Shown piece after piece: positions 8,901 through 61,719 of a stretch of 64,000 nt of DNA (positions are counted from its first letter, which is position 1; every line of letters begins with the position of its first letter). Source of the stretch: Nemertoderma westbladi. Its lineage: Eukaryota; Animalia; Xenacoelomorpha. The translations under genes and the position numbers were made by a program. Under the pieces are notes generated by a model. That model made no database searches. It saw only the letters and a program-made list of their open reading frames with translations, and was not told the DNA's origin. The stretch lies in NCBI GenBank assembly GCA_032718475.1, contig JAUCBJ010006780.1:1-64000 (forward strand), in the 5' to 3' direction.

Positions 8901-9215
8901 ACATCAGTAATGGATTGGAATTAGGGTTTGGGTGTAAGTAAACCTTGTAGCAAGTATTACATCAGTAATGGATTGGAATTAGGGTTTGGGTGTAAGTAAA
9001 CCTTGTTGTAGCAAGTATTACATCAGTAATGGATTGGAATTAGGGTTTGGGTGTAAGTAAACCTTGTAGCAAGTATTACATCAGTAATGGATTGGAATTA
9101 GGGTTTGGGTGTAAGTAAACCTTGTTGTAGCAAGTATTACATCAGTAATGGATTGGAATTAGGGTTTGGGTGTAAGTAAACCTTGAAGCAAGTATTATAT
9201 CAGTAATGGATTGGA
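2944..9215. repeat. Satellite array of 61-bp and 58-bp variants (roughly 95-100 copies by length)
   Basis: Unit GGATTGGAATTAGGGTTTGGGTGTAAGTAAACCTT(GTT)GTAGCAAGTATTACATCAGTAAT. The period is 61 at 3001/3062, and a 3-bp deletion variant is interspersed. Copies are near-identical. Confidence 0.98.
3371..3848. mobile_element. Helentron/DINE-1-like (HINE) non-autonomous element inside the satellite, partly blended with satellite sequence
   Basis: ~50-bp subterminal inverted repeats (3398-3445 vs 3773-3823), a (GAC)n microsatellite at 3741-3772, a terminal GC-rich stem-loop-like end, and an internal unit homologous (reverse strand) to the Helitron 146-bp repeat. Confidence 0.55.
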
Positions 9216-25751: not shown

Positions 25752-25780
25752 TCTATCTATCTATATATATAAATATCATG

Positions 25781-25820
<40 letters not shown>

Positions 25821-27939
25821 CAAGCTATACGTTTCTACACACAAGCACCAATCGGAGCTCGCGATACATCGAACAAAAGCTCTCGTCACGAGCACGTGCA
25901 CTGTCGCTATCTCGAGTCTTATTTTACGCGTTTGTTTGCGTGAATGCAGATTTCGTGAATTTGGTACCGGTAGCGCAGTAGGCCTAGCAGTTCATTCTGT
26001 CACTCTACACGTTGGGTCTCGACTATTATTCTACTTTATGATGCGCATCTACATGATGCAGACTGCCCCGAGCACATGGACGTGAAACGTCATTATATCG
26101 AGGCTAATTTTATGCATCATTTATGCGTGAATGCGTATTTGTGGTCAAATTGGGCTATTATTCCATAGGCCTAACCATTTTTCGGCCAAATTACAGGTCA
26201 ACCAGCAGGAAACTCTATAACAGTGGTTGTACCATCAGACTCAATCTGTTCTAAATGATACTTTGCAGATATGTTCCCGACCATAGACTGCGTGATTGGG
26301 AGGACACTGATCAATCTGCAGTTCTCCAGTCTGCCGCTAGGGGGCGAAATGTCAGAAACTGAAAACCTTCTCCAATTTCGTTATTATTAACGCCTTTTAG
26401 TTGATACGTGGCAGAGGTCTACTACACCATAGGCTGTGTGTTTTCGGAGGATGCTGACCAATCTGCAATTCCCCAGTCTGCTGCTAGGGGGAGAAATATC
26501 TGATAGTGAAAACCGTACCCATTTCGTTGTTTATAATGCTTTTTTGCTGATACTTGGCAGAGGTCTGCTACACCATAGACTGCGTGTGTGTGGAGAACTC
26601 TGAGCAATCTGCAATTCCTCTGTCTGCCGCTAGGAGGCGCAATGTCTGAAAGTGAAAACCTTCACCCATTTCGTTGTTTATAATGCTTTTTTGCTGATAC
26701 TTGGCAGAGGTCTACCACGCAAAGACTGCGTGTTTGGGGAGGAGCTAGAACCAGTCTGCATTTCTCCAGTCTGCCGCTAGGGGGCCAAATGTCTGAAAGT
26801 GAAAACCTTCACCCATTTCGTTGTTTATAATGCTTTTTTGCTGATACTTGGCAGAGGTCTACTACACAAAGACTGCGTGTTTGGGGTGGAGCTAGAACCA
26901 GTCTGCATTTCTCCAGTCTACCGCTAGGGGGCCCAATGTCTGAAAGTGAAAACCTTATCCCATTTCGTTATTAATATGCTTTTAGGCTGACACTTGGCAG
27001 ATGTGTATTACACCATAGGGTGTGTCTGGGGAGGACGCCGAACAAACTGCAGTTCTCCATTCGGCCGCTAGGGGGCGAAGTGTCTGAAAGTGAATACCCT
27101 CTCCCATTTCGATGTTTATAATGCTTTTAGGCTGATGCTTGGCAGAGGTCTACTACACCATAGGCTGCGTCTTTGTGGAGAACTTGACCAATCTGCAATT
27201 CCTCAGTCTGCCGCTAGAGGGTGAAATGTCTGAAATGAAAACCTTCTCCCATTTCGTTGTTTCTAATGCTTTTTTTTATACTTGGGAAAGGTATACTACA
27301 CCATAGGCTGTGTGTTTGGGGCGGATGCTAACCAGTCTGCAGTTCTCCAGTATACTGCTAGAGGGTGCGAAATGTCTGAAAAGTGAAAACATTCTCACAT
27401 TTATTTATTAAAAATGCTTTTAGGCTGATACTTGGCAGAGGTCTCTGTACTACATCATAAGCTGCGTCTTTGGGAAGGACGTTGACCAGTCTGCAGTTCT
27501 CCAGTCCGCCACTAGGGACGAATTGTCTGAAAGTGAAATCCTTCTCCCATTTAAATTCTTTAGAGTTTATTCTTGGCAGCGATCTAAAAGTACTGTACAG
27601 TACCTACTAAACTAAATAAACTATAGGTTGTGTTTACGAGGATGATAACCACCTGCAGTTCTACAGTTTAACCTTCTTCCATATTTTTACTATTTATAAT
27701 CCTTTGGAAATGATACTTGGCAGGTATTTATCTACTTTATACAACCTACTGTAAGCCTTATGTTGTACGTAGTATAGTAGATATTTGAAAAGTAAATCAG
27801 CTTCAGTCCTTTTGTTTGAGAGAACACTCAATCATGTGACGTTTTGTTAAGTTAAGTTAATTAATTAATCTAATGTTTGGAATGGTGAATAGGCTTGTGA
27901 ACTAGAAAGCCGTGGCCCGAAGGGCCACGGGCTTTCTAG
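25752..27939 (+). mobile_element. Non-autonomous Helitron A (shares both ends with autonomous element C)
   Basis: 5' A|TC, (TGTC)n near the 5' end, ~146-bp repeats, and a 3' hairpin ending CTAG|T. The 5' TC could be at 25752, 25756 or 25760. Confidence 0.9.
26310..27540 (+). promoter_or_regulatory. Array of CTCF-like sites (U motif plus core) in ~146-bp repeats of Helitron A
   Basis: TGCA(G/A)TTCY-N5-CTG-CCGCTAG(G/A)GGGCG, with cores near 26334, 26481, 26627, 26774, 26921, 27065 and 27211. Binding is inferred from motif similarity only. Confidence 0.6.
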
Positions 27940-30143
27940 TCTAATATATATAAATATCGATTGTCTGTCTGTGTGTTTGTCATCGGCTATACAATCGAAC
28001 CCATCTCGATGAAATCTCGCTTGCTATAGCTCGTTAGAAAGGTCTCGCCCTAACTCGTTGCAACGTAATACTCAGAGCCGTCTGAAGTTCGCCCGTCTGC
28101 CGCTAGAGGGCGATTTTCGTGATTTTCGGGCGAAATTTATCGAATTATTTCGGTTCTTCTATCGGTAATTAATTATTTAGAGGGCTAACATTTATCCCAC
28201 CTGGTATAAAATTAACATGGGTAGATTCGCCGTGTCCCATTCTCACAAAGTTTTTATTTTATTCGAGTGTTTAATATAAATATGTATGATTATTTATTGA
28301 TTAAAAACCAAATAGTGTATAAATATGTCATATTCGCCAAGCACGATCGAATTGGCCTATTGGTATTGAATAGGGAAGGATTGTTTTCTGTATCATAGCA
28401 ACGTTAAGGTAATTATTGAACTCGCAGCTAGCTGGCTGGGCACAGATAAGGAGCAAGCAGGCTGGAGTGTTGATTGGGGTGGGTTTGGGTTGTCTATTGC
28501 GAATTGCTCAGAGTAATTCTGCTTTCTCAATCATTGGCTGCATGGAAGGAGAGGTTTATAACATTTTTGTTTTACTGTTATGAATATTAAAAGTAAAATA
28601 ATTATTTCTGTAGGCCTATACTTACTGTATTATTATTTTATCTAATATTATACATCTAATCTCGATGAAATCTCGCTTACTATAGCTCGTTAGATAGGTC
28701 TCGCCCTAACTCGTTGCAACGTAATACTCAGAGCCGTCTGAAGTTCCCCTGTCTGCCGCTAGAGGGCGAATTGTCCGATAGTGAAAACCTGATCTCATTG
28801 GGTTGTTTTTAATGCTTTTGAGCTGAAACTTGGTAGCTATATACTGCAGCATAGGCTGTATATTTCCGGAGTCACTGAGTTGTCCACAGTTCCCCAGTCT
28901 ACCGTTAGAGGGCTAAATGTCTGAGAGTTAACATCTTCTCCAACTTTATTATTTACAATCCGTTTTGACTGAAACTTGGTAGGCATCTACTACAGCATAG
29001 GCTGAATCTTTACTGAGTCACAGAGTCGTTTACAATTTCCCAGTCTACCGCTAGAGGGCGAAATGTCTGCAAGTTAACATCTTCTCCAACTTTGTTATTT
29101 ATAATCCATTTAGACTGAACTTGGTAGGCATCTACTACAGCATAGGCTATATCTTTACTGAGTCGCGCAGAGTTGTCTACAGTACCCGCGTCTGCCGCTA
29201 GAGGGCGAAATGTATGAAAGTTAACATCTTCTCCAACTTTGTTATTTACAAACCTTTTAGACTGAAACTTGGTAGGCATCTACTATAGCATAGGCTATAT
29301 CTTTGCTGAGTAGTAGAGTCGTCTACAGTTCCACAGTCAGCCGCAAGAGGGCGAATTGTCTGATAGTGAAAACCTCATCCCATTTGGTTCTTTTTAATCC
29401 TTTTGAGCTGAAACTTGGCAGGTATCTACTACATCCTAGGCTCTATCTTTACGGAGTTGCAGAGTCCTATACACTTCCCCAGTCTACCGCTAGAGGGTGA
29501 AATGTCTGAAAGTTACCATCTTCTCCAACTTTGTTATTTACCAACGGTTTAGACTGAAACTTGGTAGGCATCTACTACAGCATAGGCTCTACCTTTACGG
29601 AGTCGCAGAGTTGTATACAGTTCCCCTATCTGCCGCTAGAGGGCGAATTGTCTGATAGTGAACACCTCATCCCAATTGGTTCTCTTTAATCCCTTTGAGC
29701 TGAAACTTGGCAGGAATCTACTACAGCATATTCTGTATCTTTACGGAGTCCCAGAGTCGTCTACAGTTCTTCAGTCTACCGCTAGAAGTCTGAATGTGAA
29801 CATCTACACCAATTTTGTTATTTACAATCTGTTTAAGCTGAAACTTGAAAGGCAGGCATTTTACTTCACCATAAACCCCATCTTTACCAAACTGCAGCGC
29901 CGTCTGCATTTCACCAGTCCGCAGGTAGAGTAGAGGGTGGATCTGAAAGTGATCATTTTCTGGAAATTTTGTTATTTACAATCTGACTAAAGTTGAAACT
30001 TGACAGTTATCTCTTATGGGGGTGGTGTTTTATTTAATGATGGTGTCTGTTCCGTATGCAGTTCTCCAATCTCCCACACATATTCATATATCATCTGCAC
30101 GTGCACTAGAAAGCTGTGGCCCGAAGGGCCACAGGCTTTCTAG
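27940..30143 (+). mobile_element. Non-autonomous Helitron B
   Basis: TC start directly after the CTAG of A, a 146-bp repeat array at ~28730-29960, and a 3' hairpin plus CTAG at 30140-30143. Confidence 0.9.
28735..29800 (+). promoter_or_regulatory. Array of CTCF-like sites at 146-bp spacing in Helitron B (repeated in B' and B'')
   Basis: CCGCTAGAGGGCG-type cores at 28756, 28902, 29048, 29195, 29341, 29487, 29633 and 29779. Confidence 0.6.
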
Positions 30144-32637
30144 TCTATATATATAAATATCATGTGTTTGTCTGTCTGTCTGTCTGTCCAAGCTATACGT
30201 TTCTACACACAAGCACCAATCGGAGCTCGCGATACATCGAACGAAAGCTCTCGTCACGAGCACGTGCACTGTCGCTATCTCGAGTCTTACTTTACGCGTT
30301 TGTTTGCGTGAATGCAGATTTCGTGAATTTGGTACCGGTAGCGCAGTAGGCCTAGCAGTTCATTCTGTCACTCTACACGTTGGGTCCGACTATTATGTTA
30401 CTTTTTGATGCGCATCTACGTGATGCAGACTGCCCCGAGCATATGGACGCGAAACGTCGTTATATCGAGGCTAATTTTATGTACAGTATCATTTATGCGT
30501 GAATGCGTATTATTGTGGTCAAATTGGGCTATTCCATAACCATTTTCGGCCAAATTACTGATCAACTTCTATAACAGCGGTTACACCATCAGTCTCAATC
30601 ATGTTGTAAATGATACTTTGCAGGATATGTTCCTGACCATAGACTGTGTGTTTGGGAGGATACTGATCAATCTGCAGATCTCCTGTCTGCCGCTAGGGGG
30701 CGAAATGTCCGAAACTGAAAACCTTTACCCATTTCGTTATTATTAAGGCCATTTAATTGATACGTGGCAGAGGTATACTACATCATAGGCTGTGTGTTTG
30801 CGGAGGATGCTGACCAATCTGCAATTCCCCAGTCCGCCGCTAGGGGGAGAGATATCCGAAAGTGAAAACCTTATCCCATGTCGTTGTTTCTAATGCTTTT
30901 TTGCTGATACTTGGCAGAGATCTACTTCACCATAGACTGCGTGTTTGTGGAGAACTCTGGCCAATCTGCAATTCCTCTGTCTGCCGCTAGGGGGCGCAAT
31001 GTCTGAAAGTGAAAACCTTCACCCATTTCGTTGTTTGCAATGCTTTTAGGCTGACACATGGCAGATGTGTATTACACCATATGGTGTGTGTCTGCGGGGA
31101 AGACGTCGAACAGCCTGCAATTCTCTATTCGGCCGCTAGGGGGCGAAATGTCTGAAAGCGAAAAACTACTCCCATTTCGATGTTTATAATGCTTTTAGGC
31201 TGATACTTGGCAGAGATCTACTACACCATAGACTGTGTGTTTGTGGAGAACTCTGACAAATCTGCGATTCTTCAGTCCGCCGCTAGAGGGCGAAATGTCT
31301 GAAAGTGAAAACCTTCTCCCATTTCTCCCGTAATTTGTATCTTCCATTCCAGTCATTTAGCGGTAGGGCCAGACTTACTGCCTCTTTAACAACTACGCGT
31401 AGGTGTTTTAAAAATACGCGTAGGTATTTTGGAACTACGCATTGCACTTCGCGTAGTTGCTACGCATAGCACTTCGTGTAGGTGCTACGCAGAGCTGCGC
31501 GTAGCAGTCCTGATAACAAAGATTTTTCAGTTCAGGTCCGCGGTAGCCGGTAGGGCTTGAGTTGTTAGGCAAGTATCGCTATATGGCAGGTATCTGATTA
31601 TTATCAGACAAACGGAAGAGCGAAATCGGAAGCTTATCTATCTACTGTAGATACATTCTATGGTAATAAATAATATTCGGTTCTTTCACATACAAACACC
31701 GGAATGAAAAAAATTGCATAATTTAAATATTCTACAGTAATATAAGCTGTCAGTCTACCGCTGAAGTGGTTAGTGGTTAAGCGAAAGCTGATAATACTGT
31801 ATATAATGCAATTGTTTCGTAAAATCAACAAGTACAACCAATCATGGTAGACAATTAGTCCCCCCCCCCCCCCTTGTCTACGTTAGCACATTAAATATAT
31901 CCTTGTCCTCTCGTGGACAAAGGAAATAAATGGCAATGGAGAATCGATAAATACCGCATCGTCCTAATTCCTTGTAAACTGTTTTTGAACTCTAAACATT
32001 ATAACAAAATATTGCGCGCGCTACAAATGAAGTGAAGAATATGTAGTACCACCACTACATGAGTATAGAGACATTTGTTGACAGCATTTGAAGGGTGTAT
32101 ACACTGTACATGTGGTCTCCAATTGAACATACAATATTGTCTTATTTTAGTATTGTATTGCTTAGAATGTAGGCCTACTAATTACAAACGTCTTATAGGC
32201 ATGGTTATGCGTAGCACCTACGCGTAGTTGTAGTTATGTGTAGCAACTACGCGTAGTTATTGTTAAAAATCTGACTGGCACTTGCAAGTGGTACAGTGCT
32301 GCAGTGGTACTCTACTGCAGTACAGCCAGACAGCAGTACTGCAGTCTGTATTACAGTATTAGGCAGTTCAGTCCGGCAGTACAGCTGACAGCAGTAGGTA
32401 CTGCAGTACTGGTCAGCCGGTCACCGGTAGGCTGGTACCTACTGTGGTAGGACTGGTTGTTCTACACTACAATGAACTGAGGTCAGGAAGAGGTACCGAT
32501 ACCAGTACGGCATACACTGATACAGCAGTACCGACGTACGGTCCAGTGCAGCAGTGGTCAGACGCCCCGCAGCGCCACAGGCTGACAGGCCTCAAATAGT
32601 CTGACACTCGGCCTAATTAAATTCAGTAGGCCCTACT

Positions 32638-34546
32638 CAGTCGGTGAGAAGTCAAAAATTGGACTTGAGTCCAAAATTGGACTTCGACTCCAGTTCAAGT
32701 CCAAAATTGGACTTCTGTGAGTCCAATATTGGACTTCAAATCAGCCAATTGTTCCAGGGCCTTGGGTAATAGGATCGGGCGGGATTTTTTTTCTTTAATC
32801 GAAAATATATCAAAAAATAAGAGTTTTGAACAGGGGGACCTGAAATTCACCAGGGGGAACTTTTTTTATAAGGCTTTGAATTTTTACAAAAGTCCAATAT
32901 TGGACTTTAAGTCCAATTTTGGACGTGACATTGAGAATCGAACTTAAAGGTACATGAAGCATGACAGATGAGAGACAGCCAGACAGCTGTTAAGTTATGG
33001 AAAGTTACCTTTGCAGCTCTGTATGTATCTTCAGTGTACTGACTGTACTGTACTTAGAATATAATGGTACATTCTAGCATTCTAGGTACTTTGTACTTCA
33101 GTTACTTTTAGAATATTGTTTAGTTCACAATTTACATTCATGTTATGTCTAACCTTACAGCCTTATGTACCCAGGACTTTATAGTGTCTTTAGGACTAGA
33201 TTAGATTATGCTCCAACAAATATTTAATTACAAATTATATTTCGTGGATACTGATAGCAATGCCAGGTTAGCCAACTGCAGCTGCTGCTAAGGCTAACTA
33301 CAGTACAAGCTACGATTTCGTATAAGGCTATGGAAGCCCTATCAGAAAGAAATACTACAAGTTGATGCTACCACCATCACTTCTAATTTTTCCATACAAC
33401 AGGAGGGGTATTATAAAACAGCTGGATAACAGGATAATGAAATGGGATTAGTAACTGATTAACGCGTTGGGGTCTCCACATAATAAGTACAGAAGTAACA
33501 AGTAACACACGTCATAATCATAAACCAATTGAGGGAAAGGAATAGGTTACAGAGGCAGGCTTTTCTAACTAAAACAATAAACGGCCACTTTTGACTTAAC
33601 CAATTGAAGGAGCCCTATAACCTCACCACATACTACTACTACAATCGGCATGATTCATTGCAGCTGCATTATATATATAGCAGTATAGGCCTATGTATTA
33701 AGAATGCTGTGGCGGCTTGTTCTGTTGTTGACAAAAGTGCGCCTCCACAACTCCCTTACACTCTTACAGCCTTACAGCTGACAGCCTTATCACACATGAC
33801 ATTTGCTAGATCATCCGCATCTTCAAGGCCGTGTCCTTTAAGACAGATGTGTCTCAAGAATGGGCTGTCCACCATGCTTATTCACTCCATGAGGTGCACT
33901 GGCTGGTCCTCACGGCTTAAAGCGATGTCCTGCAAAGTGGAGGCGGCTTTGTTCTAGTGTCAAGCTTGGGGGAACCAATGACTGAATGAGACAGACACCT
34001 CCAACTCCAAAGTTATATAGTGTCTGGTTGGAGATGCAGAGATGTGTGCATTGTACTTGACACAGTGAACCTAATCAAAACAATTAGTCAATAAACATTA
34101 ACTCAATAACATAATAGGTTACAGTTTACAGTAGTCTTATTTTTGCCATACGAAAATACCACAGGTATGGCAGTATGGGTATGAATGAACTATACAACTA
34201 TAGCTCAACTACGCTACCGCGGTATACACCGCTAAGGCAGTAAGGCTACCGCAAAGCTATACCACTACCGCAAAAAGTAACTACTAATGTCTGACTGTAC
34301 GTGTGCGATCCCTGCTTATAATAATTATAATAATTAATTTGATCATTAAAATAATGTTGCATTGCAATTATGTAATATATATGTACTGATACGGGATGCA
34401 GTTTTGATTTAAATACCGATATACAGTATGGCAGCTTGGGTACACTTGGAGTTGTACTAAAGTCCAATATTGGACTTTGGAGTCCAAAATTGGACTTGAA
34501 GTCTAAAATTGGACTTGAAGTCCAATTTTTGACTTCTCACCGACTG
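32638..34546. mobile_element. Non-autonomous TIR element with CAG...CTG ends and a 5-bp TSD, nested just upstream of RepHel
   Basis: TIRs CAGTCGGTGAGAAGTCAAAAATTGGACTT / AAGTCCAATTTTTGACTTCTCACCGACTG, CTACT on both flanks, and subterminal GTCCAA(A/T)ATTGGAC palindromes. Confidence 0.85.
33630..34072 (-). mobile_element. Decayed 3' fragment of the same RTE LINE family as 13047-13653
   Basis: The reverse complement aligns by eye to 13289-13650 and has a (GTA)n tail. Confidence 0.85.
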
Positions 34547-34765
34547 CTACTGCATACTGTACACGTGCCCTAGGCTGCTAGCACTACTGCACTACCGGTA
34601 CTGCTGTACTGCAGTAGCCTAACACTGTAACAGCTTAATTCAAGAATTCTGAATTACCGGTCTGCCGGTAGCTACCGTCTGACTGTTAAATTAAATTTTT
34701 CAATTTTACGTCAGTCTCTCAGCTGCTCAGAGTCTCAGTACAGCAGTACGTTACGCTATGCCAGT

Positions 34766-37700
34766 ATGCCGCCAAAGAAGAGACCACGGTTGACTGCACG
34801 CAGAAAGGGGAGATCAGCAGACGCTAAAAGAAAAGCTGCTGAACGAGCTTCAGAGAGTGAGAGTGGTCTGGAACAAAGACGTTCACTTGATCGCCAGCGA
34901 ACTTCTGCGAGGATGGACAGTGAGTCGCCTGAAGATCGTCGGGCTCGGTTGGCCCAAGACCGCCAACATACCGCGGCTGTGAGAACAGAGCAGTCGCCTG
35001 AAGATCGACGGGCGCGGTTGTCACAAGATAGCCAACATACCGCGGCTGTGAGAACAGAGCAGTCGCCTGAAGATCGACGGGCGCGGTTGGCACAAGATCG
35101 CCAACATACCGCGGCTGTGAGAACCGAGCAGTCGCCTGAAGCTCGGCGGGCTCGGTTGGCCCAAGTCCGCCAACATACCGCGGATGTGAGGATCATTCAG
35201 AGGCTGTTACCTCAAAGTAAATTCGTGGCAAGAAAAGTCAGTGGTATTTTTGCAGGAAATGTGCTTGTGTCCTACAATATCCATGACACACTCATCAAAC
35301 TGGACGGCTCGCCCAACCTAGACTTTACTTGCAAGACTTGTGGCGCTGTTCGATTTAAAGGTGAAAAGAATCGCGTAGCCATTTGCTGCGCAGGTAAGCC
35401 GACACCGGTTTTATCAGATATTTTCGCCGACTATCCTGTTAGTTTGCAGTCCCTGTGGGTGGGTCAGGATGAACGGTCGTTGATTTTCAGGGACAGATCC
35501 CGGGCTCTGAATAACGGATTATCAATGGCCTCTTTGAAAGTAAAGACGCCCCGTCCTCCGGGTTAGTAAGTACATGTCTGCATATTATTTATTAGGCCTA
35601 AATTAATTACCTGTAATTAAATTACAATTAATACCAATACCGGTAGGCCTACTCTAATAAGCCTATGCTTTTATACTAGGGCTCGATCGGAGCTCCGGCT
35701 CCGGCCCTCCTCAAGTTTTAACATGCATTCTTCAACCTATAGGCTAGTAGCCAACTTGAAACTAAAGTGTATCTATTCAATACCGGTGTATAGTTATTTG
35801 CATTTCCGCTTCGCACAGCACGAAATAACATGTGGTTCTGGTTATGGAGTTTTCGTCAAAATGTCAATTTTCAAATGTGCGTTATTTCCTCAATTTTCGT
35901 TAACATTTATTTTCATTTCACTATACTGTTATAATTTTCTCTGACAAACCGTTCTGACAAAAATTAGTAACAGGCGAATGGTGTTTAGTTTATATAGTGG
36001 TCTGAGGTCTGTTTGTTAGCCTGATTTTGGAGGTGAAGGTTTATGATTTTCGAGTTAGTTTGTCTGCCAGAATCTTATTTGTGGCCAAATGTCATAAAAC
36101 TCAGTGAGTTTTCATCCATATATGATTGGGGATTTTGGGAATATATATTCGGAATATAAAAGTTTTTTTTTCAATTTCACTTTCCCATTATTTATTTATT
36201 TATTATTCATACATTGTTAAAAAAATGCATCAGTTCTAAATATGTAGTGCAAGTATTGGAATTCTGTTTTTATACAACAACTGCGCACATCTATTAGGCC
36301 TATAAAGGTATAGAGTATCTGATGTATGTGTAAGTGTACATTATATATAAACCTGTATAAGGTTTATATGTCAGTATGTAGAGGGATGTTACATATATAT
36401 TACAGATTAAAGCTATTGCTATTATGTATACATTATAAATTGTCGGTGCAACTCTGATCTTTAACTAACTTTACTCGAGTCGTTGGCCTGTACAAATCTG
36501 TAAATAATTTATGGGATATTGGATTTAATCAATTTAATTTTTATATTTTAGTAATTAATTTTGTTTTAGGTGGAAACTATTCGCCTTCGGTTATCATCCA
36601 AGGGAAGGTAGCCGTTCTGATGGGGCCACTTCGCGCTGATGACGGCAGCCAACCTGCCTTCTCACAGCTTTACGTCCTGGATCCGGACCTTGCGGATAAG
36701 GAAACCGAGCTGCGGTGGAAGAACATGGTTCTTCCGGGATCCGTTTCGTCGAGGGAGAAGGAGGTTTTAATGGGACTCCTGGAACTATTACAGGACGTAC
36801 TCAAGAACTGCAATCCTTATCTAAAGGATTTTAAGAGTGCCATGGAGGTTGTGGACCAAGATGAGTCGACGTCTCTACAGCTGCACATAGACGGCAGTCG
36901 TCGGCCCGAGGGGGAGCACGAGAGAAGGTTTAACGCTCCTCAGGGATTGAAGGAAATATCCAGTAAGTTGATTCGTATTTCTCGGGGAATATTTAAATGC
37001 AGGTATATTACTTAACACACTATGATGTAACTGCTTCGTGAGGTATTAAGTTTCATGCGGTGTTAATTAATTAATTAATTTAATTATATTAATGACATAT
37101 GGCAATATGGGAACGAGATTTGCTTAATATATCCGGCGGATATATTATTCGCCCGGGTTAGGGATGTGAGTCAAGAAATTAAAGAAATTTTCCAGAGAAA
37201 ATTTCTGGTAGGGGAAGGTGGGGGAATTAGAAACATGGGGTAATTAGAAGCAATGGCTACTACATGCATGCTTTTGTATGTATAGACTTGAAATTTTGAT
37301 GTTTATTGAGATAAATTATTGGTGATTATTTTTCCAATAGGAATATGGCGTTTATTTTCACTTCTTCATTGTCAAATAGCTGATTGTATAAAAGATGAAA
37401 AAAAAATCAAATTTTCGATTATTTTTTGCAACTTCACAAATGGATTGTGAGCGATGTCTTATTCCAATTATCTCAAGCAATAGCTTAATTTAACGCTTAT
37501 TATGTCATCTATTCAGTAGACAACCTAATTTAATGATAGCATAATTAAAAATTTGTTTGTTCAACATAATTTAAAAATGGTCAAATTTTAGTGCCATGGG
37601 GTAATTGGAAACATAAATTTTTTTAGCTGGTCCTGTTACTTTGGGGACCGTCCTTTTCAACAGTTTCTAATTGTCATACAGCTGCGCACCGGTACCTATC

Positions 37701-49956: not shown

Positions 49957-51719
49957 TTAGGTTAAAAGTATTTCGGATACTTTTAGTATTTTCTTTTTAA
50001 CCTCCCCAGCATCGTCCATGCTCTCCAACGCGGCCCCCCACGCAGCAACCTGGCTATCGATTAGCCTTTTTAGTGGTGGCGTTTGGGCGGGAGAAGATCC
50101 CGATCCCGATCCTCTCGGTATAAATGGGGAGGAGGTACCCAAATAGGATGGGGATGCCGGTGGTGGTGGGGTTGCAGGTGGCGGTGGGGTTGCCATTATC
50201 TCCTCTTCGTAGGGGAGAGGGACCCCCGATACCACCGTGGTGGTAGCTATTACCTCCTATATTAAAACATAAATTTTTTGAAATAATATTAATAACAATC
50301 AGCGGAGTGTTTAAAAGGGATCAGACTTCTCAGGATAAACAGGTTTTAGGGATCGGGTATAATAATATATATTGTTCAAAGCGCAATTCACAATATAACA
50401 GAACATAATTAAATACATAAAGGCCGATTGAGTATATATCCTAAATATGAATTAGATCGACAGAAAATTAACTTCTCCATCAGTTATTAAAATTGTGGAG
50501 AAAAAATTGAATTCCCACAGGAAATTCAATTTTTAATACAGTTTAGTTATCTACATTATGTGGCGGTGTAAGTATGAGACGGATTTAGACGTAACATTCT
50601 CACTTTGTTTCATACAGCTGAAGTATAGTAATACAGTAACTAATATATCCTTAACTAATGTAATAATATACAACTTACCTTCCCTGTGGTCCGGGCGGTG
50701 CTGTACAAGGTTTTCAGGCCTTGATAGTGCCGCACTTTTAGATTTCTGATTTCTACTATACTGCCTTTCGGCAGATTTAGTTTACTCTCTGGGAACTTGG
50801 ACGGTTCCCAGACTGTTAATGAACATTCGTTGACCCCATCTCGTAAGGTGTATACCCTGATGGGGACTTCTTTCACCACATTATCTCTTGTGACCACAGC
50901 CACGTCGTCTTCTACGTGGTCCACGTAGGCAACTATGGGGCCTATAGTATAAATAAACAGACAATGAAATAGGTTATCAAAATATATGTAAATATAAGAA
51001 ACCTCAATAAAAACAGTATAAATCGCTGTTTACCTTTTTTCATATTTCTCCTGTATAAGTACTGTAATACCGGTACCTATTACCATGATCAGCCACAACA
51101 GTTATGTTTTGGTTTTGTCATTAATGTACAGTAACTTTCGGATACGTTTTGGGTAAATCTTTCAGATATTCGCGTAGCTACGGCAGTTTGACGCATTGCA
51201 TCTTATATCACCAGTTTCAGAGTTTGAACATTAAATTCTGTACCTGTTTGTGACGCGCGTGGCTACGCTAGATGCGACACATCACTACACTTGTGCTAAC
51301 CTTAAGTAAGTGTATGTGGATGTGCTAATGTGCTATACATAATCTTAAAAAAACGTGAATACTACGTTATTATACTGTAGTTATTAGAATCAACATTTGA
51401 AACTGAACGCCCGTTTACTGATACCCAATTAAACGCCCGTTGGACTATATATTGCACTGAATTTACTGATGAAAGCCTACTCTATGTGCCTCAACATAAG
51501 TCAGTATAAGTATAGGATATGTATATTACAATTATTTATTACCTAGGCCTACTGTATGCTGGTATGAGTCAATCTGGTGGATATTATTATATTTAACGAC
51601 CAAAGTAAAGGCTACATCTGCTGTGTTAAACAATAATCTATTAACATACCTGACAAGAAACTTCCAATAGCTGCATTTACTAATGGTCCCAAACTCATAT
51701 CGGGAAGTTCTTCCCCCAT
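49957..51719 (-). CDS. Helitron-borne OB-fold single-stranded DNA-binding protein (RPA/SSB-like) with a Pro/Ser-rich tail, ~210 aa
   Basis: Exons 51719-51650, 50941-50679 and 50256-49957, GT-AG and phase-consistent. YTLRDGVNECSLTVW...GSIVEIRNLKVRHYQGLKTLYSTART fits the OB-fold beta-strand pattern. The start and last exon boundary are uncertain. Confidence 0.7.
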
Positions 51720-51768
51720 GTCTTCGACCAAAACAAATAAATATAAAATAAATGGATATTGCAGATAA

Positions 51769-51897
51769 ACTCGATAACACAAAATAAAATAACAACTATG
51801 CTGCTAAACCTACGCAACTGTAGCTACGGTAAACTCGATAACACAAAATAAAATAACAACTATGCTGCTAAGCCTACGCAACTGTAGCTACGGTAAA
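51769..51897. repeat. ~62-bp tandem duplication upstream of the OB-fold gene
   Basis: TAAACTCGATAACACAAAATAAAATAACAACTATGCTGCTAA.CCTACGCAACTGTAGCTACGG occurs twice. Confidence 0.85.
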
Positions 51898-52288
51898 GGA
51901 ATTATATATATACATACCCACATAGAGATACAGGCCAGACCAATGTAAATAACCACCCTAATAACCAATCAGGTTCTTTACTCAATAAGACTCCACCATA
52001 TCTGCTTGCATTAAGTATAGGATAATATTCAGGGGTGAATGTCTGAATGTTTATTGTTTATAATTGGTATAATTCCCTTAACCCTGTTCATGAATCATAA
52101 ACCTGTCTCATAACTCATAGATGCACGTGACCTTAGTTAGATGTTATGTATGGCTGCTATGGATATGGGCTGATAGATTGATTACCTATCATTGTGGCCG
52201 ATAGGTTTGGTGGGTGATGGTTTGCTGACATGCAATAAAACAAGCTTGCCAGCGAGAGCTGTAAATAAAAAAAGACGAATCCATTACT

Positions 52289-54660
52289 GGCTCATTCCAT
52301 GAAAAGGTCAACCTCCCTAATTTCGAAAAATGAGATGTAGCTTTGAATTTATACTTCTTTTAGGTCAAAATTTATCGTACTTCCTGAATTCAGTGTTAAA
52401 AATTGTATCAACACAGGTGGTTTCTCAAAAATAGTCGAATTACAAATTATGCACCTGCTCTGCACAAAATGTGAATAAAAGTGTGCAAAAGTTTCGTTTC
52501 TTGTAGGCACTTTCTATGACCAATAAATTAACATTTCTGAGCTTTGTACCAAATCAAAAATAATCCCATTTTCGAATTTTTTTGGTTTCATTTAATTTCA
52601 CCAGCGTTTCATTCCTCTGTAATGAAATCGATAAAGTTAATCTTGTGATGTCCCATACTTTACCTAAAATAGTGAAATTTTTAGTTTATTCACAGAGATG
52701 TAACTCAGCCTAATCACCCAGTTAAATGTAAAGCACGTTTGTGTTGCGTCATCGTATAAGACAATTAGTTTCATCTTCACTCCCTCAGAAATATCATGAC
52801 GGCCAATTGAAAATTGTCCCATACTTTACCATTAAAATGGCGATTATATTAGTGCACTGTATTAATGTAATATGTGAAGCCAGGAGTGTCATAATACTCT
52901 AAGATCATAGTCGGTCGTAAGAATATGAGTCTATATTTGAACTGAGAATCATTCCTCAGTCAAGAACTCTTTTGGTTTTTGCATGTAAAGTCCCATACTT
53001 TACCAAAAAATAGTGAAATTTTTAATTTATACACAGAGAAGTAGTCTAACTCAGCCCAATCACCCAGTGGAATGCAAAACAGGTTTGTGTTGCGTCATCT
53101 TAAGAAACAATTACCTGTAGTTTCATAATCTACTCCCTCAGAAACATCATGATCACGGCCAATTGAAAATTGTCCCATACTTTACCATTATAATGGCGAT
53201 TACATTTTAGTGCACTGTATTAATGTAATATGTGAAGCCAGGAGTGTCATAATACTCTAAGATCATAGTCGGTCGTAAGAATATGAGTCTATATTTGAAC
53301 TGAGAATCATTCCTCAGTCAAGAACTCTTTTGGTTTTTGCATGTAAAGTCCCATACTTTACCAAAAAATAGTGAAATTTTTAATTTATACACAGAGAAGT
53401 AGTCTAACTCAGCCCAATCACCCAGTGGAATGCAAAACAGGTTTGTGTTGCGTCATCTTAAGAAACAATTACCTGTAGTTTCATAATCTACTCCCTCAGA
53501 AACATCATGATCACGGCCAATTGAAAATTGTCCCATACTTTACCATTATAATGGCGATTACATTTTAGTGCACTGTATTAATGTAATATATGAAACCTGG
53601 AGGGCAGGAGTGTTATAATGCTTTAGGGTGATAGTAGTGGGAAGCATAGAAGTATGTATTTGAACTAAGAATCATTCCTCAGTTAACTAATCTTTGAGTT
53701 TATGCATGTAAAGTCCCGTACTTTACAACAAATTTCAAAAAATTTAGTTTTTTAGCAGAAAAGAAGATCGGTAAGTACAGTAACTGATACATTTTTAGAA
53801 AAATGGAAAGAATTTCTAAACTTTTCACAGACTACATGTGTACCAAGTTTGGTTATATTTCATCAATGATTGACGGACTTATTTCGGTTTTTATCAAAAT
53901 TTTGAAACTATCGGTACCAACAGACAGAATGTCTGATATGTCACCTTTCATTCCTTAAACTTCAGATTATTTCCAAACTTTTGACAGACTTCATACGTAC
54001 CAAGTTTGGTTTAATTTCATCTATAAACTGAGTTATACAGTATTAGCGATCAAAAATTAGACAGATGACATACAACTCCTCAACGGCACCCATATGCTAA
54101 GACTTCGGGTCAATTTGTGGGTCGCCCCACATTTTGCATCCATATCTTGGTTGGAAATACTTAGTTGCACTTTATTATCACTAATTATCCAGAAATTACT
54201 GTTAGGTTAAGTGTAAGAGACCATTTTGACCATAAAATTCGGACAGGTCCCGTACTTTACTTAGCAATGTCCCATACTTTACCACACACACCACACTATA
54301 AAAAATTAGCAATGTAGCAATTCGTCTGATATTTATATTTTTATTTAAGCTTAATAATACAGCTTTATCCTAAACATCAACTCAACACCGTACCTGCGCA
54401 CAATTCGCTAAATTTTAGAATTGAAATCATAAAATAAAATAAAAAATTTCGTACGAATCCGTACTTTACCTTAATTGGACAAGCTGGTGTTTTCTCAAAA
54501 GTGACTAAGTCCCGCCATAAGCTTCGCGAAATCAAAGCTGATATTCGAAAGTTCAATCCAAGCACAATTTTGTGCACATATGTGCTGTGGATAACATTGT
54601 ACAGGCAATCAAAGTTCAAAATTGGGTACGAATGTCCCGTACTTTACTTTGGAATGAGCC
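52289..54660. mobile_element. Non-autonomous TIR DNA transposon with a 4-bp TSD and internal ~358-bp tandem repeats, nested in Helitron C
   Basis: TIRs GGCTCATTCCA / TGGAATGAGCC, TACT on both flanks, repeat anchors at 52801, 53157 and 53515, and recurrent GTCCC(A/G)TACTTTAC. Confidence 0.82.
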
Positions 54661-55753
54661 TACTATCAATATTTTTGTAATACATTACGCACCTATGCAG
54701 GGCAGCATCCTAATATCGAAAAACGAAACATTGAGCAAAGTAACGTTTGTACAATACAATATATACGTTCAGTATACAATACAATATATACATATACAAT
54801 ACAATACAATTGTATATATATATATATATATACTATATTGTACAGTACGTTAAAAAAACACTGTTTGTAGGAAATGTATCTTCTATAGGCCTACAATTCT
54901 AAACGAAATAAAGCGAAATTTTGCAGAAAGCATATCATGTCCAATATATGCTCCCTATGGGGTGTCGTCAGAATTTTGATTGAGTCTACGATTATGATCG
55001 GTCATTCTAGAATTTATTTCACTGTTGCTAGGCAACCAACAGGTACCTAGCAACCAAAACCTTGCATACACAACTACTGTAGGTCCGATAACGAACCTAT
55101 ACTTGGGAACGGTATACTACACCATAGGCTGTGTGTTTGGGGCGGATGCTAACCAGTCTGCAGTTCTCCAGTATACTGCTAGAGGGTGCGAAATGTCTGA
55201 AAAGTGAAAACATTCTCACATTTATTTATTAAAAATGCTTTTAAGCTGATACTTGGCAGAGGTCTACTGTACTACATCATAAGCTGCGTCTTTGGGAAGG
55301 ACGTTGACCAGTCTGCAGTTCTCCAGTCCGCCACTAGGGGACGAATTGTCTGAAGGTGAAATCCTTCTCCCATTTAAATTATTTAGAGTTTATTCTTGGC
55401 AGCGATCTAAAAGTACTGTACAGTACCTACTAAACTAAATAAACTATAGGTTGTGTTTACGAGGATGATAACCACCTGCAGTTCTACAGTTTAACCTTTT
55501 TCCATATTTTTACTATTTGTAATCCTTTGGAAATGATACTTGGTAGGCATTTACTATATACAACAAGCCTTATGTTGTACATAGTAGTTTGTAGTAAAAT
55601 ACAGTAGCTTCAATACTTTTGTTTGAGAGAACACTCAATCATGTGACGTTTTGTTAAGTTAAGTTAATTAATTAATTACAGAATTAATGTTTGGAATGGT
55701 GAATAGTCTTGTGAACTAGAAAGCCGTGGCCCGAAGGGCCACTGGCTTTCTAG

Positions 55754-57815
55754 TCTATATATATAAATATCGATTGTCTGTCTGTGTGTTTGTCATCGGC
55801 TATACAATCGAACCCATCTCGATGAAATCTCGCTTGCTATATCTCGTTAGAAAGGTCTCGCCCTAACTCGTTGCAACGTAATACTCAGAGCCGTCGGAAG
55901 TTCGCCCGTCTGCCGCTGGGCGATTTTCGTGATTTTCGGGCGAAATTTATCGAATTATTTCGGTTCTTCTATCGGTAATTAATGATTTAGAGGGCTAACA
56001 TTTATCCCACCTGGTATAAAATTAACATGGGTAGATTCGCCGTGTCCCATTCTCACAAAGTTTTTATTTTATTCGAGTGTTTAATATAAATATGTATGAT
56101 TATTTATTGATTAAAAAGCAAATAGTGTATAAATATGTCATATTCGCCAAGCACGATCGAATTGGCCTATTCTTATTGAATAGGGAAGGATTTTTTTCTG
56201 TATCATAGCAACGTTAAGGTAATTATTGAACTCACAGCTAGCTGGCTGGGCACAGATAAGGAGCAAGCAGGCTGGAGTGTTGATTGGGGTGGGTTTGGGT
56301 TGTCTATTGCGAATTGCTCAAGAGTAATTCTGCTTTCTCAATCATTGGCTGCATGGAAGGAGAGGGTTATAACATTTTTGTTTTACTGTTATGAATATTA
56401 AAAGTAAAATAATTATTTCTGTAGGCCTACATATACTTACTGTATTATTATTTTATCTAATATTATACATCTAATCTCCATGAAATCTCGCTTACTATAG
56501 CTCGTTAGATAGGTCTCGCCCTAACTCGTTGCAACGTAATACTCAGAGCCGTCTGAAGTTCCCCCATCTGCCGCTAGAGGGCGAATTGTCCGATAGTGAA
56601 AACCTGATCTCATTGGGTTGTTTTTAATGCTTTTGAGCTGAAACTTGGTAGCTATATACTGCAGCATAGGCTGTATCTTTACTGAGTGGCAGAGTCGTCT
56701 ACAATTCCCCAGTCTACCGCTAGAGGGCGAAATGTCTGAAAGTTAACATCTTCTCCAACTTTGTTATTTATAATCCATTTAGACTGAACTTGGTAGGCAT
56801 CTACTACAGCATAGGCTATATCTTTACTGAGTCGCGCAGAGTTGTCTACATTACCCGCGTCTGCCTCTAGAGGGCGAAATGTATGAAAGTTAACATCTCC
56901 TCCAACTTTCTTATTTACAATCCTTTTATACTGAAACTTGGTAGGCATCTACTATAGCATAGGCTATATCTTTGCGGAGTAGTAGAGTCGTCTACAGTTC
57001 TACAGTCAGCCGCTAGAGGGCGAATTTTCTGATAGTGAATACCTCATCCCATTTGGTTCTTTTTAATCATTTTGAGCTGAAACTTGGTTGGTATCTACTA
57101 CATCATAGGCTGTATCTTTACGGGGTTGCAGAATCCTATTCACTTCCCCAGTCTACCGCTAGAGGGTGAAATGTCTGAAAGTTAACATCTTCTCCAACTT
57201 TGTTATTTACTAACGGTTTAGACTGAAACTTGGTAGGCATCTACTACAGCATAGGCTGTACCTTTACGGAGTCACAGAGTTGTATACAGTCCCCCCATCT
57301 GCCGCTAGAGGGCGACATATCTGATAGTGAACACCTCATCCCATTTGGTTCTTTTTAATCCTATTGAGCTGGAACTTGGCAGGAATCTACTACAGCATAT
57401 TCTGTATCTTTACGGAGTCCCAGAGTCGTCTACAGTTCTTCAGTCTACCGCTAGAGGGTGAAATGTCTGAATGTGAACATCTACACCAATTTTGTTATTT
57501 ACAATCTGTTTAAGCTGAAACTTGAAAGGCAGGCATTTTACTTCACCATAAACCCCATCTTTACCAAACTGCAGCGCCGTCTGCATTTCACCAGTCCGCA
57601 GGTAGAGGGTGGATCTGAAAGTGATCATTTTCTGGAAATTTTGATATTTACAATCTGCCTAAAGTTGAAACTTGACAGTTATCTCTTATGGGGGTGGTGT
57701 TTTATTTAATGATGGTGTCTGTTCCGTATGCAGTTCTCAAATCTCCCACACATATTCATATATCATCTGCACGTGCACTAGAAAGCTGTGGCCCGAAGGG
57801 CCACAGGCTTTCTAG
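55754..57815 (+). mobile_element. Non-autonomous Helitron B' (second copy of family B, one repeat unit shorter)
   Basis: Near-identical to 27940-30143, with a TC start and a hairpin plus CTAG end. Confidence 0.92.
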
Positions 57816-59493
57816 TCTATCTATATATATAAATATCCTCTGTCTGTCTGTGAGTCTGTGAGTCTGTGAGTCTATGAGTCTGTGAGTCTGTCCAAGCTAT
57901 ACGCTCCGACACACGAGCACCAATCTGAGCGAATGATACATCGATCGAAAGCTCTCGTCCCGAGCACGTAAACTATCGCTATCTCGAGGCTTATTTTACG
58001 CGTTTGCTTGCGTGAATGCGTATTTTGTATTCGCTACAACATGTTGTGTGATAAAATCTCAAAGTGATTCGAATATTCCTTTTGGCAGTACAGGCCTGGC
58101 AAAGCTGAGAGTTAGTTAGCAAGGCAGCTAGCTACTTGCAGACCAATCATAGGTGGCCTGCAGCAGGCTGGGTTGGTTAAGTAGTAATCTCAATAAATAG
58201 GACCCAGCAGGAGAGTGGAGTGGATCTACTGTGATTGGTTCTTGACTTACATTGGTAAGAACAAGCAGTAAATCTTAGATTAGCTTTTTTTCAGTTCACA
58301 TATTGTTTATAATCATAAACACAAAATGATTCAATTATTCATTTTTGCAATGTACCGGATGGGTGCTAGCGAGGTAGGCCTAGCAGGTCGTCAGTCCGTC
58401 ATCCTACAAGTTGGATCTTGACTCTATCATGTGCGTGCACCTATATAATGCAGACCATCCTCAGCCCGTGAACATGAATTGTAAAGGCTATCTCGAGGCT
58501 GATTTTTTACACATTTACTTGATACTTGCATGAATGCGTCTTTGAGGAAAATTGCATTATTCTGCAGTTGTTTTGTTATCGGAGAAATTACTGATCAGCA
58601 AGCAGGAAATTATAACAGCAGTTATTGCATCATCGTAACCACTCTGCTGACACTTTGCAGAATAAATTCTACCTGACCATAGCTGCGTGTTGGGAGGACG
58701 CCGACCAGTTTGCAGTTCTTCAGTCTGCCACTAGGAGGCGAAATGTCTGAAAGTGAAAATCTTATCCTATCTTGTTATTAATAATGATTTTTAGCTGAGA
58801 CTTAGGTCCTTTACACAATATGTTTATAATGTTTTTTTTGCTGATACCAAGCAGAGTATACTACACCGTAGGGTGTGTATTTGGGCTTGGGGAGACGATG
58901 ACTAATCTTCAGTTCCCCAGTCTGCCGCTATTAGGGGATGAAATGTCTGAATGAGGAAACCTACAATTTTGTTGTTTATGAATACTTTTTTGCTGATACT
59001 TGGCATTTGGCAGAGGACTACTACACCATAGTCGTCATGTTTGGGGAGGACGCTAACCAGTGCATAATTATGCAGTCTGCCACTAGGGGGCGAAATGTCT
59101 GAAATTAAAACCTTCCATTTTAATACGATAGAGTTGCTGCAGTGACCTACTGCACTATAGGTTATGTTTGCGAGGACGCTAACCACTACTCTGCAGTTAT
59201 ACAGTTTTCCACTAAGGGGAAAATATTACACACAGTTTAAACCTTTTCACATTTTATTATTTGTAATCCATTGGAGGTGTTACTTGGAAGGTATCTACTA
59301 CAACATAAAGCCTTATGTTTATTATTGTATGTACTGTAGCTGCAACTAAAACGGGATCAGTCTGTTAGTCTTATGTAAAGTTTTGTTAAGTTAATTAATT
59401 TATTTATTTATGTTTGATATTGTCCATTGATTGATTGATTGTATAGAAGCTTGTGAACTAGAAAGCCGTGGCCGAAGGCCACGGGCTTTCTAG
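57816..59493 (+). mobile_element. Non-autonomous Helitron E (diverged relative of A)
   Basis: TC start, an A-like 5' block (CAAGCTATACG...GAAAGCTCTCGTC), diverged repeats, and the hairpin CTAGAAAGCCGTGGCC-GAA-GGCCACGGGCTTTCTAG. Confidence 0.88.
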
Positions 59494-61719
59494 TCTAATA
59501 TATATAAATCTCGATTGTCTGTCTGTCTGTCTGTCTGTGTGTTTGTCATCGGCTATACAATCGAACCCATCTCGATGAAATCTCGCTTGCTATATCTCGT
59601 TAGAAAGGTCTCGCCCTAACTCGTTGCAACGTAATACTCAGAGCCGTCTGAAGTTCGCCCGTCTGCCGCTAGAGGGCGATTTTCGTGATTTTCGGGCGAA
59701 ATTTATCGAATTATTTCGGTTCTTCTATCGGTAATTAATGATTTAGAGGGCTAACATTTATCCCACCTGGTATAAAATTAACATGGGTAGATTCGCCGTG
59801 TCCCATTCTCACAAAGTTTTTATTTTATTCGAGTGTTTAATATAAATATGTATGATTATTTATTGATTAAAAATCAAATAGTGTATAAATATGTCATATT
59901 CGCCAAGCACGATCGAATTGGCCTATTGCTATTGAATAGGGAAGGATTGTTTTCTGTATCATAGCAACGTTAAGGTAATTATTGAACTCGCAGCTAGCTG
60001 GCTGGGCACAGATAAGGAGCAAGCAGGCTGGAGTGTTGATTGGGGTGGGTTTGGGTTGTCTATTGCTAATTGCTCAGAGTAATTCTGCTTTTTCAATCAT
60101 TGGCTGCAGGGAAGGACAGGTTTATAACATTTTTGTTTTACTGTTATGAATATTAAAAGGAAAATAATTATTTCTGTAGGCCTATACTTACAGTACTGTA
60201 TTATTATTTTATCTAATAGTATACATCTAATCTCGATGAAATCTCGCTTACTATAGCTCGTTAGATAGGTCTCGCCCTAAGTCGTTGCAACGTAATACTC
60301 AGAGCCGTCTGAAGTTCCCCCGTCTGCCGCTAGAGGGCGAATTGTCCGATAGTGAAAACCTGATCTTATTGGGTTGTTTTTAATGCTTTTGAGCTGAAAC
60401 TTGGTAGCTATATACTGCAGCATAGGCTGTATTATTTCCGGAGTCACTGGGTTGTCTACAGTTCCCCAGTCTACCGTTAGAGGGCTAAATGTCTGAGAGT
60501 TAACATCTTCTCCAACTTTGTTATTTACAATCCGTTTAGACTGAAACTTGGTAGGCATCTACTACAGCATAGACTGTATCTTTACTGAGTAGCAGAGTCG
60601 TCTACAATTCCCCGGTCTACCGCTAGAGGGCGAAATGTCTGAAAGTTAACATCTTCTCCAACTTTGTTATTTATAATCCATTTAGACTGAACTTGGTAGG
60701 CATCTACTACAGCATAGGCTATATCTTTACTGAGTCGCGCAGAGTTGTCTACAGTACCCGCGTCTGCCGCTAGAGGGCGAAATGTATGAAAGTTAACATC
60801 TTCTCCAACTTTGTTATTTACAATCCTTTTAGACTGAAACTTGGTAGGGCATCTACTATAGCATAGGCTATATCTTTGCGGAGTAGTAGAGTTGTCTACA
60901 GTTCCACAGTCAGCCGCAAGAGGGCGAATTGTCTGATAGTGAAAACCTCATCCCATTTGGTTCTTTTTAATCATTTTGAGCTGAAACTTGGTTGGTATCT
61001 ACTACATCATAGGCTCTATCTTTACGGAGTTGCAGAGTCCTATACACTTCCCCGGTCTACCGCTAGAGGGTGAAATGTCTGAAAGTTAACATCTTCTCCA
61101 ACTTTGTTATTTACAAACGGTTTAGACTGAAACTTGGTAGGCATCTACTACAGCATAGGCTCTACATTTACTGAGTCGCAGAGTTGTATACAGTTCCCCT
61201 ATCTGCCGCTAGAGGGCGAATTGTCTGTTAGTGAACACCTCATCCCAATTGGTTCTTTTTAATCCCTTTGAGCTGGAACTTGGCAGGAATCTACTACAGC
61301 ATATTCTGTATCTTTACGGAGTCCCAGAGTCGTCTACAGTTCTTCAGTCTACCGCTAGAGGGTGAAATGTCTGAATGTGAACATCTACACCAATTTTGTT
61401 ATTTACAATCTGTTTAAGCTGAAACTTGAAAGGCAGGCATTTTACTTCACCATAAACCCCATCTTTACCAAACTGCAGCGTCGTCTGCATTTCACCAGTC
61501 CGCAGGTAGAGGGTGGATCTGAAAGTGATAATTTTCTGGAAATTTTGTTATTTACAATCTGCCTAAAGTTGAAACTTGACAGTTATCTCTTATGGGGGTG
61601 GTGTTTTATTTAATGATGGTGTCTGTTCCGTATGCAGTTCTCCAATCTCCCACACATATTCATATATAATCTGCACGTGCACTAGAAAGCTGTGGCCCGA
61701 AGGGCCACAGGCTTTCTAG
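59494..61719 (+). mobile_element. Non-autonomous Helitron B'' (third copy of family B)
   Basis: Near-identical to B. It ends with hairpin plus CTAG followed by a host T at 61720. Confidence 0.92.

Follow-up and report, generated by a model that had tools for sequence, protein, structure and literature searches.

A chain of transposable elements in the 64,000-nucleotide stretch of DNA analyzed here (positions 1 to 64,000 of contig JAUCBJ010006780.1, hereafter the window) raises the question of whether a Helitron family can multiply CTCF sites and carry them from place to place. A first-pass annotation had read the internal repeats of six Helitrons as nucleosome-length arrays of co-oriented CTCF-like sites, and had proposed that they form a mobile insulator or loop-anchor cassette that shields the transposase gene from silencing. 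We find that the 146-bp repeats of this family mostly carry a two-part CTCF-type site, and their sequence makes it likely that the transposons scatter clusters of such sites through the genome. We give a probability of roughly one half to the reading that the host CTCF binds some of these sites and that insertions thereby deliver same-direction clusters acting as a local patch of open chromatin or a barrier.

Six Helitrons joined head to tail

Positions 25760-61719 are a chain of six Helitrons, all on the forward strand:

25760..27939 (+): Helitron 1, non-autonomous, A-type; TC start after A, hairpin and CTAG end
27940..30143 (+): Helitron 2, non-autonomous, B-type; 96.5% identical to element 6
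30144..55753 (+): Helitron 3, 25.6 kb, RepHel-coding, with A-type ends
55754..57815 (+): Helitron 4, B-type
57816..59493 (+): Helitron 5, diverged A-like
59494..61719 (+): Helitron 6, B-type; the next base is T

Helitrons are defined by 5'-TC and CTRR-3' termini in the absence of terminal inverted repeats, a 3' palindrome, insertion between A and T, and a RepHel protein (PMC4778049). All six elements start with TC and end with CTAG, and all six have a 3' palindrome, a GTGGCC..GGCCAC hairpin followed by CTAG (at 27912, 30116, 55726, 57788, 59468, and 61692), with folding energies of -17 to -19 kcal/mol. This 3'-end pattern occurs six times in the window and 0 times in 100 shuffles. In contrast to the definition in PMC4778049, the stem runs into the terminal CTAG and does not end about 11 nt before it. 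The outer ends of the chain read A/TC and CTAG/T, as expected for the A/T target of Helitrons, and the five inner junctions read CTAG/TC, each 3' end abutting the TC start of the next element. The start of Helitron 1 is ambiguous within TCTA repeats and could be 4 or 8 nt upstream of the position given.

The five non-autonomous elements (1, 2, 4, 5, and 6) are 1.7-2.2 kb long each. Elements 2, 4, and 6 make up a second, B-type subfamily, and Helitron 1, which is 87% identical to the 5' part of element 3 and 93% identical to its 3' part, looks like an internal-deletion relative of that element. The order of subfamilies along the chain is strictly alternating: A, B, A, B, A-like, B. Plain rolling-circle multimerization of a single element cannot give such an alternating chain; the mixed head-to-tail chain could have arisen by repeated insertion at the A/T of a resident 5' end, or by read-through of 3' ends.

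Only element 3 codes for RepHel:

34766..48445 (+): RepHel gene, predicted 11 exons with canonical splice sites, open frame of 1574 aa

The frame has the HUH, YxxKY, and helicase motifs, matches the Pfam families of the Helitron Rep domain (PF14214, E 5e-36) and the PIF1 helicase (PF05970, E 2e-46), and is 45-53% identical to at least 120 Helitron-type proteins among the matches listed. A separate nested Helitron carrying the gene was considered and rejected: none of the 94 internal CTRR-T sites has a comparable hairpin (best fold -10.4 kcal/mol), and since there is no other Helitron-like 3' end within element 3, the RepHel gene belongs to this element. The inverted-repeat elements in its introns and spacers look like nested insertions. 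At the N-terminus of the protein, a 69-bp coding repeat (34923-35190, +) gives 23-residue STPR-like repeats, whose match (E 7e-4) is below the cut-off.

The repeats carry a two-part CTCF-type site

We anchored 45 motif-bearing units, 42 in arrays and 3 as solo sites:

26280..27552 (+): A-type array of element 1, 9 units, cores 26334-27509, spacing 144-154 bp
28729-29854 (+): B-type array of element 2, 8 units; plus a solo site at 28100
30636..31325 (+): 5' array of element 3, 5 units, all with p<1e-5, spacing 147-149 bp
55099..55386 (+): 3' unit pair of element 3, 55176 damaged, 55331 with p=2e-6, spacing 155 bp
56544-57531 (+): B-type array of element 4, 7 units; solo site at 55913 broken by a deletion
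58925 (+): unit broken by an insertion, one of 3 units of element 5, spacing 197 and 155 bp
60300-61435 (+): B-type array of element 6, 8 units; plus a solo site at 59666

The 146-147 bp period, initially attributed to all six elements, is that of elements 2, 4, and 6; the spacings of elements 1, 3, and 5 depart from it, and Tandem Repeats Finder (TRF) called no such tandem array in element 5. A core that had been placed at 29779 is broken by a deletion.

Searching for the core CCGCTAGRGGGCG with up to two mismatches gave 44 occurrences in the window, 3 outside the Helitrons and 41 within them. The latter are all on the forward strand, which bears out the earlier count by eye of about 40 same-orientation sites. 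We scored the units with an approximate CTCF count matrix (MA0139.1-like); all scores rest on this matrix, which agrees with the CTCF consensus printed in PMC12885311. At p<1e-5 there are 39 matches in the window for 1.3 expected, and 36 of them are within Helitrons (36 of the 45 units, all on the forward strand). The scores also stand well above shuffled controls: for seven units, 0, 0, 3, 0, 3, 2, and 1 of 3000 dinucleotide shuffles matched or beat the real sequence.

The second half of the site is the upstream (U) motif, whose consensus we took from the text of PMC12885311. Among 50 offsets scanned, its best position is 18 nt upstream of the core in both subfamilies. At least 8 of its 10 positions match in 17/19 A-type and 17/23 B-type units, i.e., in 34 of the 42 array units (the 3 solo sites are not counted), for a chance of 2.5e-4 per site. 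The annotation was thus right to see a U motif in the same orientation as the core and at canonical spacing, with a 5-bp linker. One complete example is:

26316..26349 (+): full 34-bp two-part CTCF-type site (U, 5-bp linker, 3 bp, core)

The same 9+5+3 spacing from U to core is found in the IL3 +2.9 insulator oligo (PMC12885311), and the total length of two-part CTCF sites is 33/34 bp (PMC3368268), as in the Helitron units. All units share one ancestor, so that what we see is a single improbable motif that was amplified and not some 40 events, and they count as one observation. For one ancestral unit of 146 bp, the joint probability is still about 3e-8 (the product of 292 positions, 2e-7, 2 spacings, and 2.5e-4), from which we conclude that the motif is not due to chance. 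Metagenome scans with a family-specific 22-mer and with a general U+core pattern gave 0 matches.

A high-copy family

The two-part motif is carried by a mobile and abundant family. In addition to the six elements of the window, contigs that fit one 161-bp unit number 1723 in run X1 and 485 in run X3. In run X1, which is possibly the source of the window itself, the summed depth, which is no copy number, is 64,000-77,000 over the B-type 5' part versus 72-230 over RepHel exon 1. We read this only as a sign of many non-autonomous copies and few coding ones.

Signs of constraint on the site

Conservation was measured on an alignment of 32 internal units, without the 3 solo sites and the 10 units that stand first or last. 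Of 147 windows of 13 columns, that of the core has the lowest entropy (random-site p 0.02), and by substitution rate it ranks 5 of 147 (p 0.035). The A and B consensus sequences differ at 1/13 core positions (a tolerated A/G position), 3/9 U positions, 0/5 linker positions, and 28/117 positions elsewhere, a contrast that for the core is not significant alone. In the 39 indel-free sites, the 22 distinct variants cause a smaller loss of matrix score than random draws (P 0.002-0.003), and the 16 variants seen at least twice are milder than random as well (P 0.01).

More suggestive of selection than these variant tests is the way in which the homology of divergent copies ends at the edge of the core. 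Homology between the solo sites and the unit is limited to profile positions 49-94, and a further homologue was found in another element family:

3450..3544 (-): homologue of the Helitron repeat unit (nhmmer E 6e-8, profile positions 1-92), core at 3464, within an inverted-repeat element at 3370-3847

Here the homology stops at position 92, which is the downstream edge of the core. The host element of this homologue (3370-3847, -) is small, has inverted repeats and a (GTC)n microsatellite, and lies within a 58/61-bp satellite. We take it to resemble a non-autonomous Helentron. Its central part seems to be mixed with satellite sequence, which may be an artefact of assembly, and loose ends in the run-depth and single-unit contig matches fit a subfamily of this element.

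Across the contigs of the runs, variants at a frequency of at least 12% affect 1/13 core positions (a CpG change in about one quarter of the depth) and 4/9 U positions (two of them towards the CTCF consensus), in a count that is biased by the clipping of divergent contigs. Overall, these data give weak to moderate signs of constraint on the core, consistent with a site kept compatible with CTCF, and show none on U.

The host and its CTCF

The lineage of the host was approached through a gene upstream of the chain:

9606-17875 (-): host CCDC142 gene, 29-37% identical to its nearest relatives, on a long branch

A HMMER search with a CCDC142 exon gave 164 relatives, the closest being those of amphioxus, Lingula, Owenia, a gastropod, and a crinoid. 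The top five, all bilaterian, score 153-116 bits, versus 40-61 for the named sponge and cnidarians. The idea that CCDC142 is a bilaterian-only gene was dropped, since sponge and cnidarian members exist. Three trees place the sequence as a long branch outside the vertebrate, insect, tunicate, and medusozoan clades and near slow-evolving bilaterians, with no fixed phylum. The CpG observed/expected ratio of 0.8-1.0 counts against a vertebrate host. On this evidence the host looks non-vertebrate and is likely an invertebrate bilaterian with CTCF, a protein of bilaterians that was lost in flatworms and some nematodes (PMC12221973, PMC7535936, PMC10658182).

Do the arrays bind CTCF?

In the mechanism that we propose, one CTCF-type site near the 5' end would have been duplicated into arrays, and rolling-circle transposition would then have spread these, for the most part in non-autonomous copies. 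In active master copies, weak selection may hold the core to a form that suits CTCF, while individual copies decay. The host CTCF may bind unmethylated copies and make local patches of open chromatin or barriers there; the period of 146 bp and the shared orientation would be by-products of tandem duplication. The account starts from what is directly observed in these data: the six head-to-tail elements, the open RepHel frame, the motif with its spacing, and the high copy number. A bolder version, in which an invertebrate CTCF reads the full two-part site and the Helitron acts as a mobile multi-site insulator, with thousands of copies of 3-9 sites each that protect themselves from silencing and redraw boundaries as they jump, seems to us doubtful.

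Several observations weigh against binding and selection. The motif had been described as the best-conserved part of the unit, and this holds for the core but not for U, whose conservation is average (47 and 63 of 147 shifts do as well), while the block directly downstream of the core is as conserved as the core itself and has genome-wide variants of at least 12% in only 2/68 positions. Restricted to the 13 core positions, the variant test is weak (P 0.04-0.11). The sites also show decay: 6/45 have indels in or at the core (these were excluded from the variant test), units at the 3' edge have lost or broken cores, the second core CpG is TG in 8/45 sites and in about one quarter of the read depth, and U has drifted to TACAG in B-type units. 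As for the host, an approximately unbiased (AU) test does not reject a place for CCDC142 beside the cnidarian clade, outside the sampled bilaterians (p 0.21), and CTCF is absent from non-bilaterians and flatworms (PMC12221973, PMC7535936, PMC10658182). Flies do not have the U motif (PMC12885311) and ambulacrarian CTCFs lack one or two fingers (PMC13317027), so the reading of U by the CTCF of this host is only a possibility.

Part of this evidence would be expected if a host CTCF site had been captured once and amplified neutrally as a passenger, most copies being methylated or heterochromatic, unbound, and of no insulating role. Helitrons do capture flanking DNA (PMC4778049), the excess of conservation is small and common to neighboring blocks, the indels and the decaying edge units fit such a history, and the CpG observed/expected ratio is 0.53-0.57 in the arrays versus 0.95-1.04 in exons. 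We nevertheless hold such neutral carriage to be unlikely, because the A and B consensus sequences differ at only one tolerated core position (the contrast that is not significant alone), the variants are biased towards tolerated changes, and the homology breaks at the edge of the site both in the solo sites and in the second element family.

It is less probable still that the site has another reader, such as a lineage-specific zinc-finger factor or the STPR-bearing RepHel protein, or that the host CTCF reads the core only and the U match is a relic. The CCDC142 trees do not fix the host lineage, GC-rich loop motifs are served by unrelated zinc-finger proteins in ctenophores (PMC12221973), RepHel has STPR-like repeats, though below the cut-off, and further conserved blocks in the unit suggest additional binders. 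However, finding both halves at canonical spacing is very unlikely unless a CTCF-type reader was present at some time, given the joint probability per unit calculated above, and the best CCDC142 relatives are bilaterian. Roughly even odds remain with the reading in which the host CTCF binds some of the copies.

Nucleosome length, loop anchoring, and shielding

A length of 146 bp is that of the nucleosome core particle without linker. Two bound 34-bp sites would leave 112 bp between them, which is too short for a nucleosome, and a periodicity of AA/TT/TA of about 10 bp is not significant in either of the 2 units analyzed (15% and 33% of shuffles do as well). Together with the spacings of 155 and 197 bp, this argues against the proposed link to nucleosome length. 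The repeat length is in fact ordinary for Helitron-type central repeats: those of oyster Helentrons are 140-180 bp long, with one cluster at 146-147 bp (PMC7492417).

Nor do the sites look like loop anchors. Vertebrate loops need convergent sites (PMC6985041), and here all sites point in one direction, with no convergent pair around the enclosed gene; this common orientation is explained by tandem duplication and head-to-tail stacking alone. Echinoderm boundaries, for their part, follow no CTCF orientation rule (PMC13317027).

The sites do bracket RepHel, in that they occur on both sides of an intact frame, but the coding element itself has only 5 upstream and 2 downstream, one of the latter damaged, at 3.4 and 6.6 kb from the coding region with apparent nested elements between. 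A selected, nucleosome-phased insulator or loop-anchor cassette would draw support from vertebrates, where U-bearing sites are strong insulators and 2-4 tandem copies insulate better (PMC12885311), and from Dxz4, where same-polarity arrays block cohesin (PMC6985041). Against the orientation, spacing, and damage described above, we consider it improbable. Moreover, since most copies are non-autonomous, and the depth over RepHel exon 1 in X1 is so far below that over the B-type 5' part, there are few copies in which a gene could be shielded, and any protection of the transposase would concern a small minority of them.

Relation to known systems

The components of this system have precedents. Transposon-borne CTCF binding has been shown by chromatin immunoprecipitation (ChIP) in mammals (B2 short interspersed nuclear elements, SINEs, and other repeats, PMC3368268), lamprey (hAT-Tip100 and hAT-Charlie, PMC5504073, where one hAT-Tip100 repeat has peaks overlapping 489/586 of its copies), and zebrafish (non-autonomous DNA transposons, PMC7182764). 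As here, a mobile element multiplies a CTCF site, and the two-part motif occurs in all three lineages; the passages cited name no tandem arrays or Helitrons, whereas our elements are rolling-circle transposons with 3-9 tandem sites in an apparent invertebrate. Caenorhabditis Helitrons with dense clusters of heat-shock elements likewise cluster and disperse the motif of one host factor, in that case HSF-1 and a short overlapping motif, as opposed to a 34-bp two-part site once per 146 bp (PMC6927752). Tandem CTCF sites of the same polarity are known from DXZ4/Dxz4, FIRRE, and ICCE, which are single-locus, non-mobile mammalian macrosatellites with boundary activity (PMC6985041). In all of these systems binding has been shown; the sites described here are predicted from sequence.

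Other rolling-circle elements resemble ours in structure. The oyster Cg_HINE/Pearl Helentrons have short satellite-like arrays in non-autonomous elements, including the 146-147-bp monomer cluster, but they have HINE ends where ours have the TC/CTAG ends of Helitrons, and PMC7492417 makes no mention of CTCF (0 occurrences). In C. elegans, periodic An/Tn clusters (PATCs) derived from Helitron minisatellites have been proposed as chromatin barriers (bioRxiv 10.64898/2026.08.08.743475), as we suggest for internal repeats here; they differ in that they rely on a 10-bp periodicity which is mechanical and was acquired after insertion, in a species that lacks CTCF, and not on a protein-binding-type motif built into the element.

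Transposon-borne CTCF sites, Helitron motif clusters, and tandem CTCF arrays are thus already known, and what appears to be new is their combination, arrays of two-part CTCF-type sites carried by a Helitron. Helitrons reportedly mark sperm loops in Xenopus (Shi et al. 2023), at anchors that are reported to lack CTCF. A literature search by titles and abstract openings found no Helitron-borne two-part CTCF arrays. The word Helitron is also absent from 2 supplementary files of the zebrafish paper (PMC7182764), whose Table S3, perhaps not among these, could name such elements.

If the sites are bound, Helitrons would supply a large share of the CTCF sites of this genome, arriving as ready-made clusters, the best-insulating arrangement in vertebrate assays (PMC12885311). 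Polymorphic insertions would then put to a natural test the open question whether boundaries in an invertebrate are created by CTCF sites (PMC13317027, PMC10658182), and the U motif at vertebrate spacing would, if truly read, make recognition by fingers 9-11 older than the vertebrates. If they are unbound, the family would be an example of a host absorbing thousands of decoy sites.

Other features of the window

Element 3 contains, besides RepHel, an exon-sized open reading frame (ORF) on the opposite strand:

50658..51029 (-): weak match to an RPA OB-fold (PF16900, E 9e-4), below the curated cut-off

It may be a second gene of the Helitron. Among 8 short ORF pieces of the element there was no further Pfam match. 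A very high-depth repeat at 33330-34100 in the same element reaches a summed depth of up to 434,000 in X1, above any bin of the CTCF arrays. In the CCDC142 intron, an ORF at 13026-13616 has a weak match to DUF6451 and is presumably part of a long interspersed nuclear element (LINE)-like sequence. A Mutator-like element with long repetitive inverted ends lies at 19013-25665, with transposase pieces at 21723-23194 (-), and ends about 90 bp before the Helitron chain. Finally, positions 2944-9215 are a satellite of 6.3 kb in which 58-bp units alternate with 61-bp units; it has a strong G/C strand skew and units containing TTAGGG.

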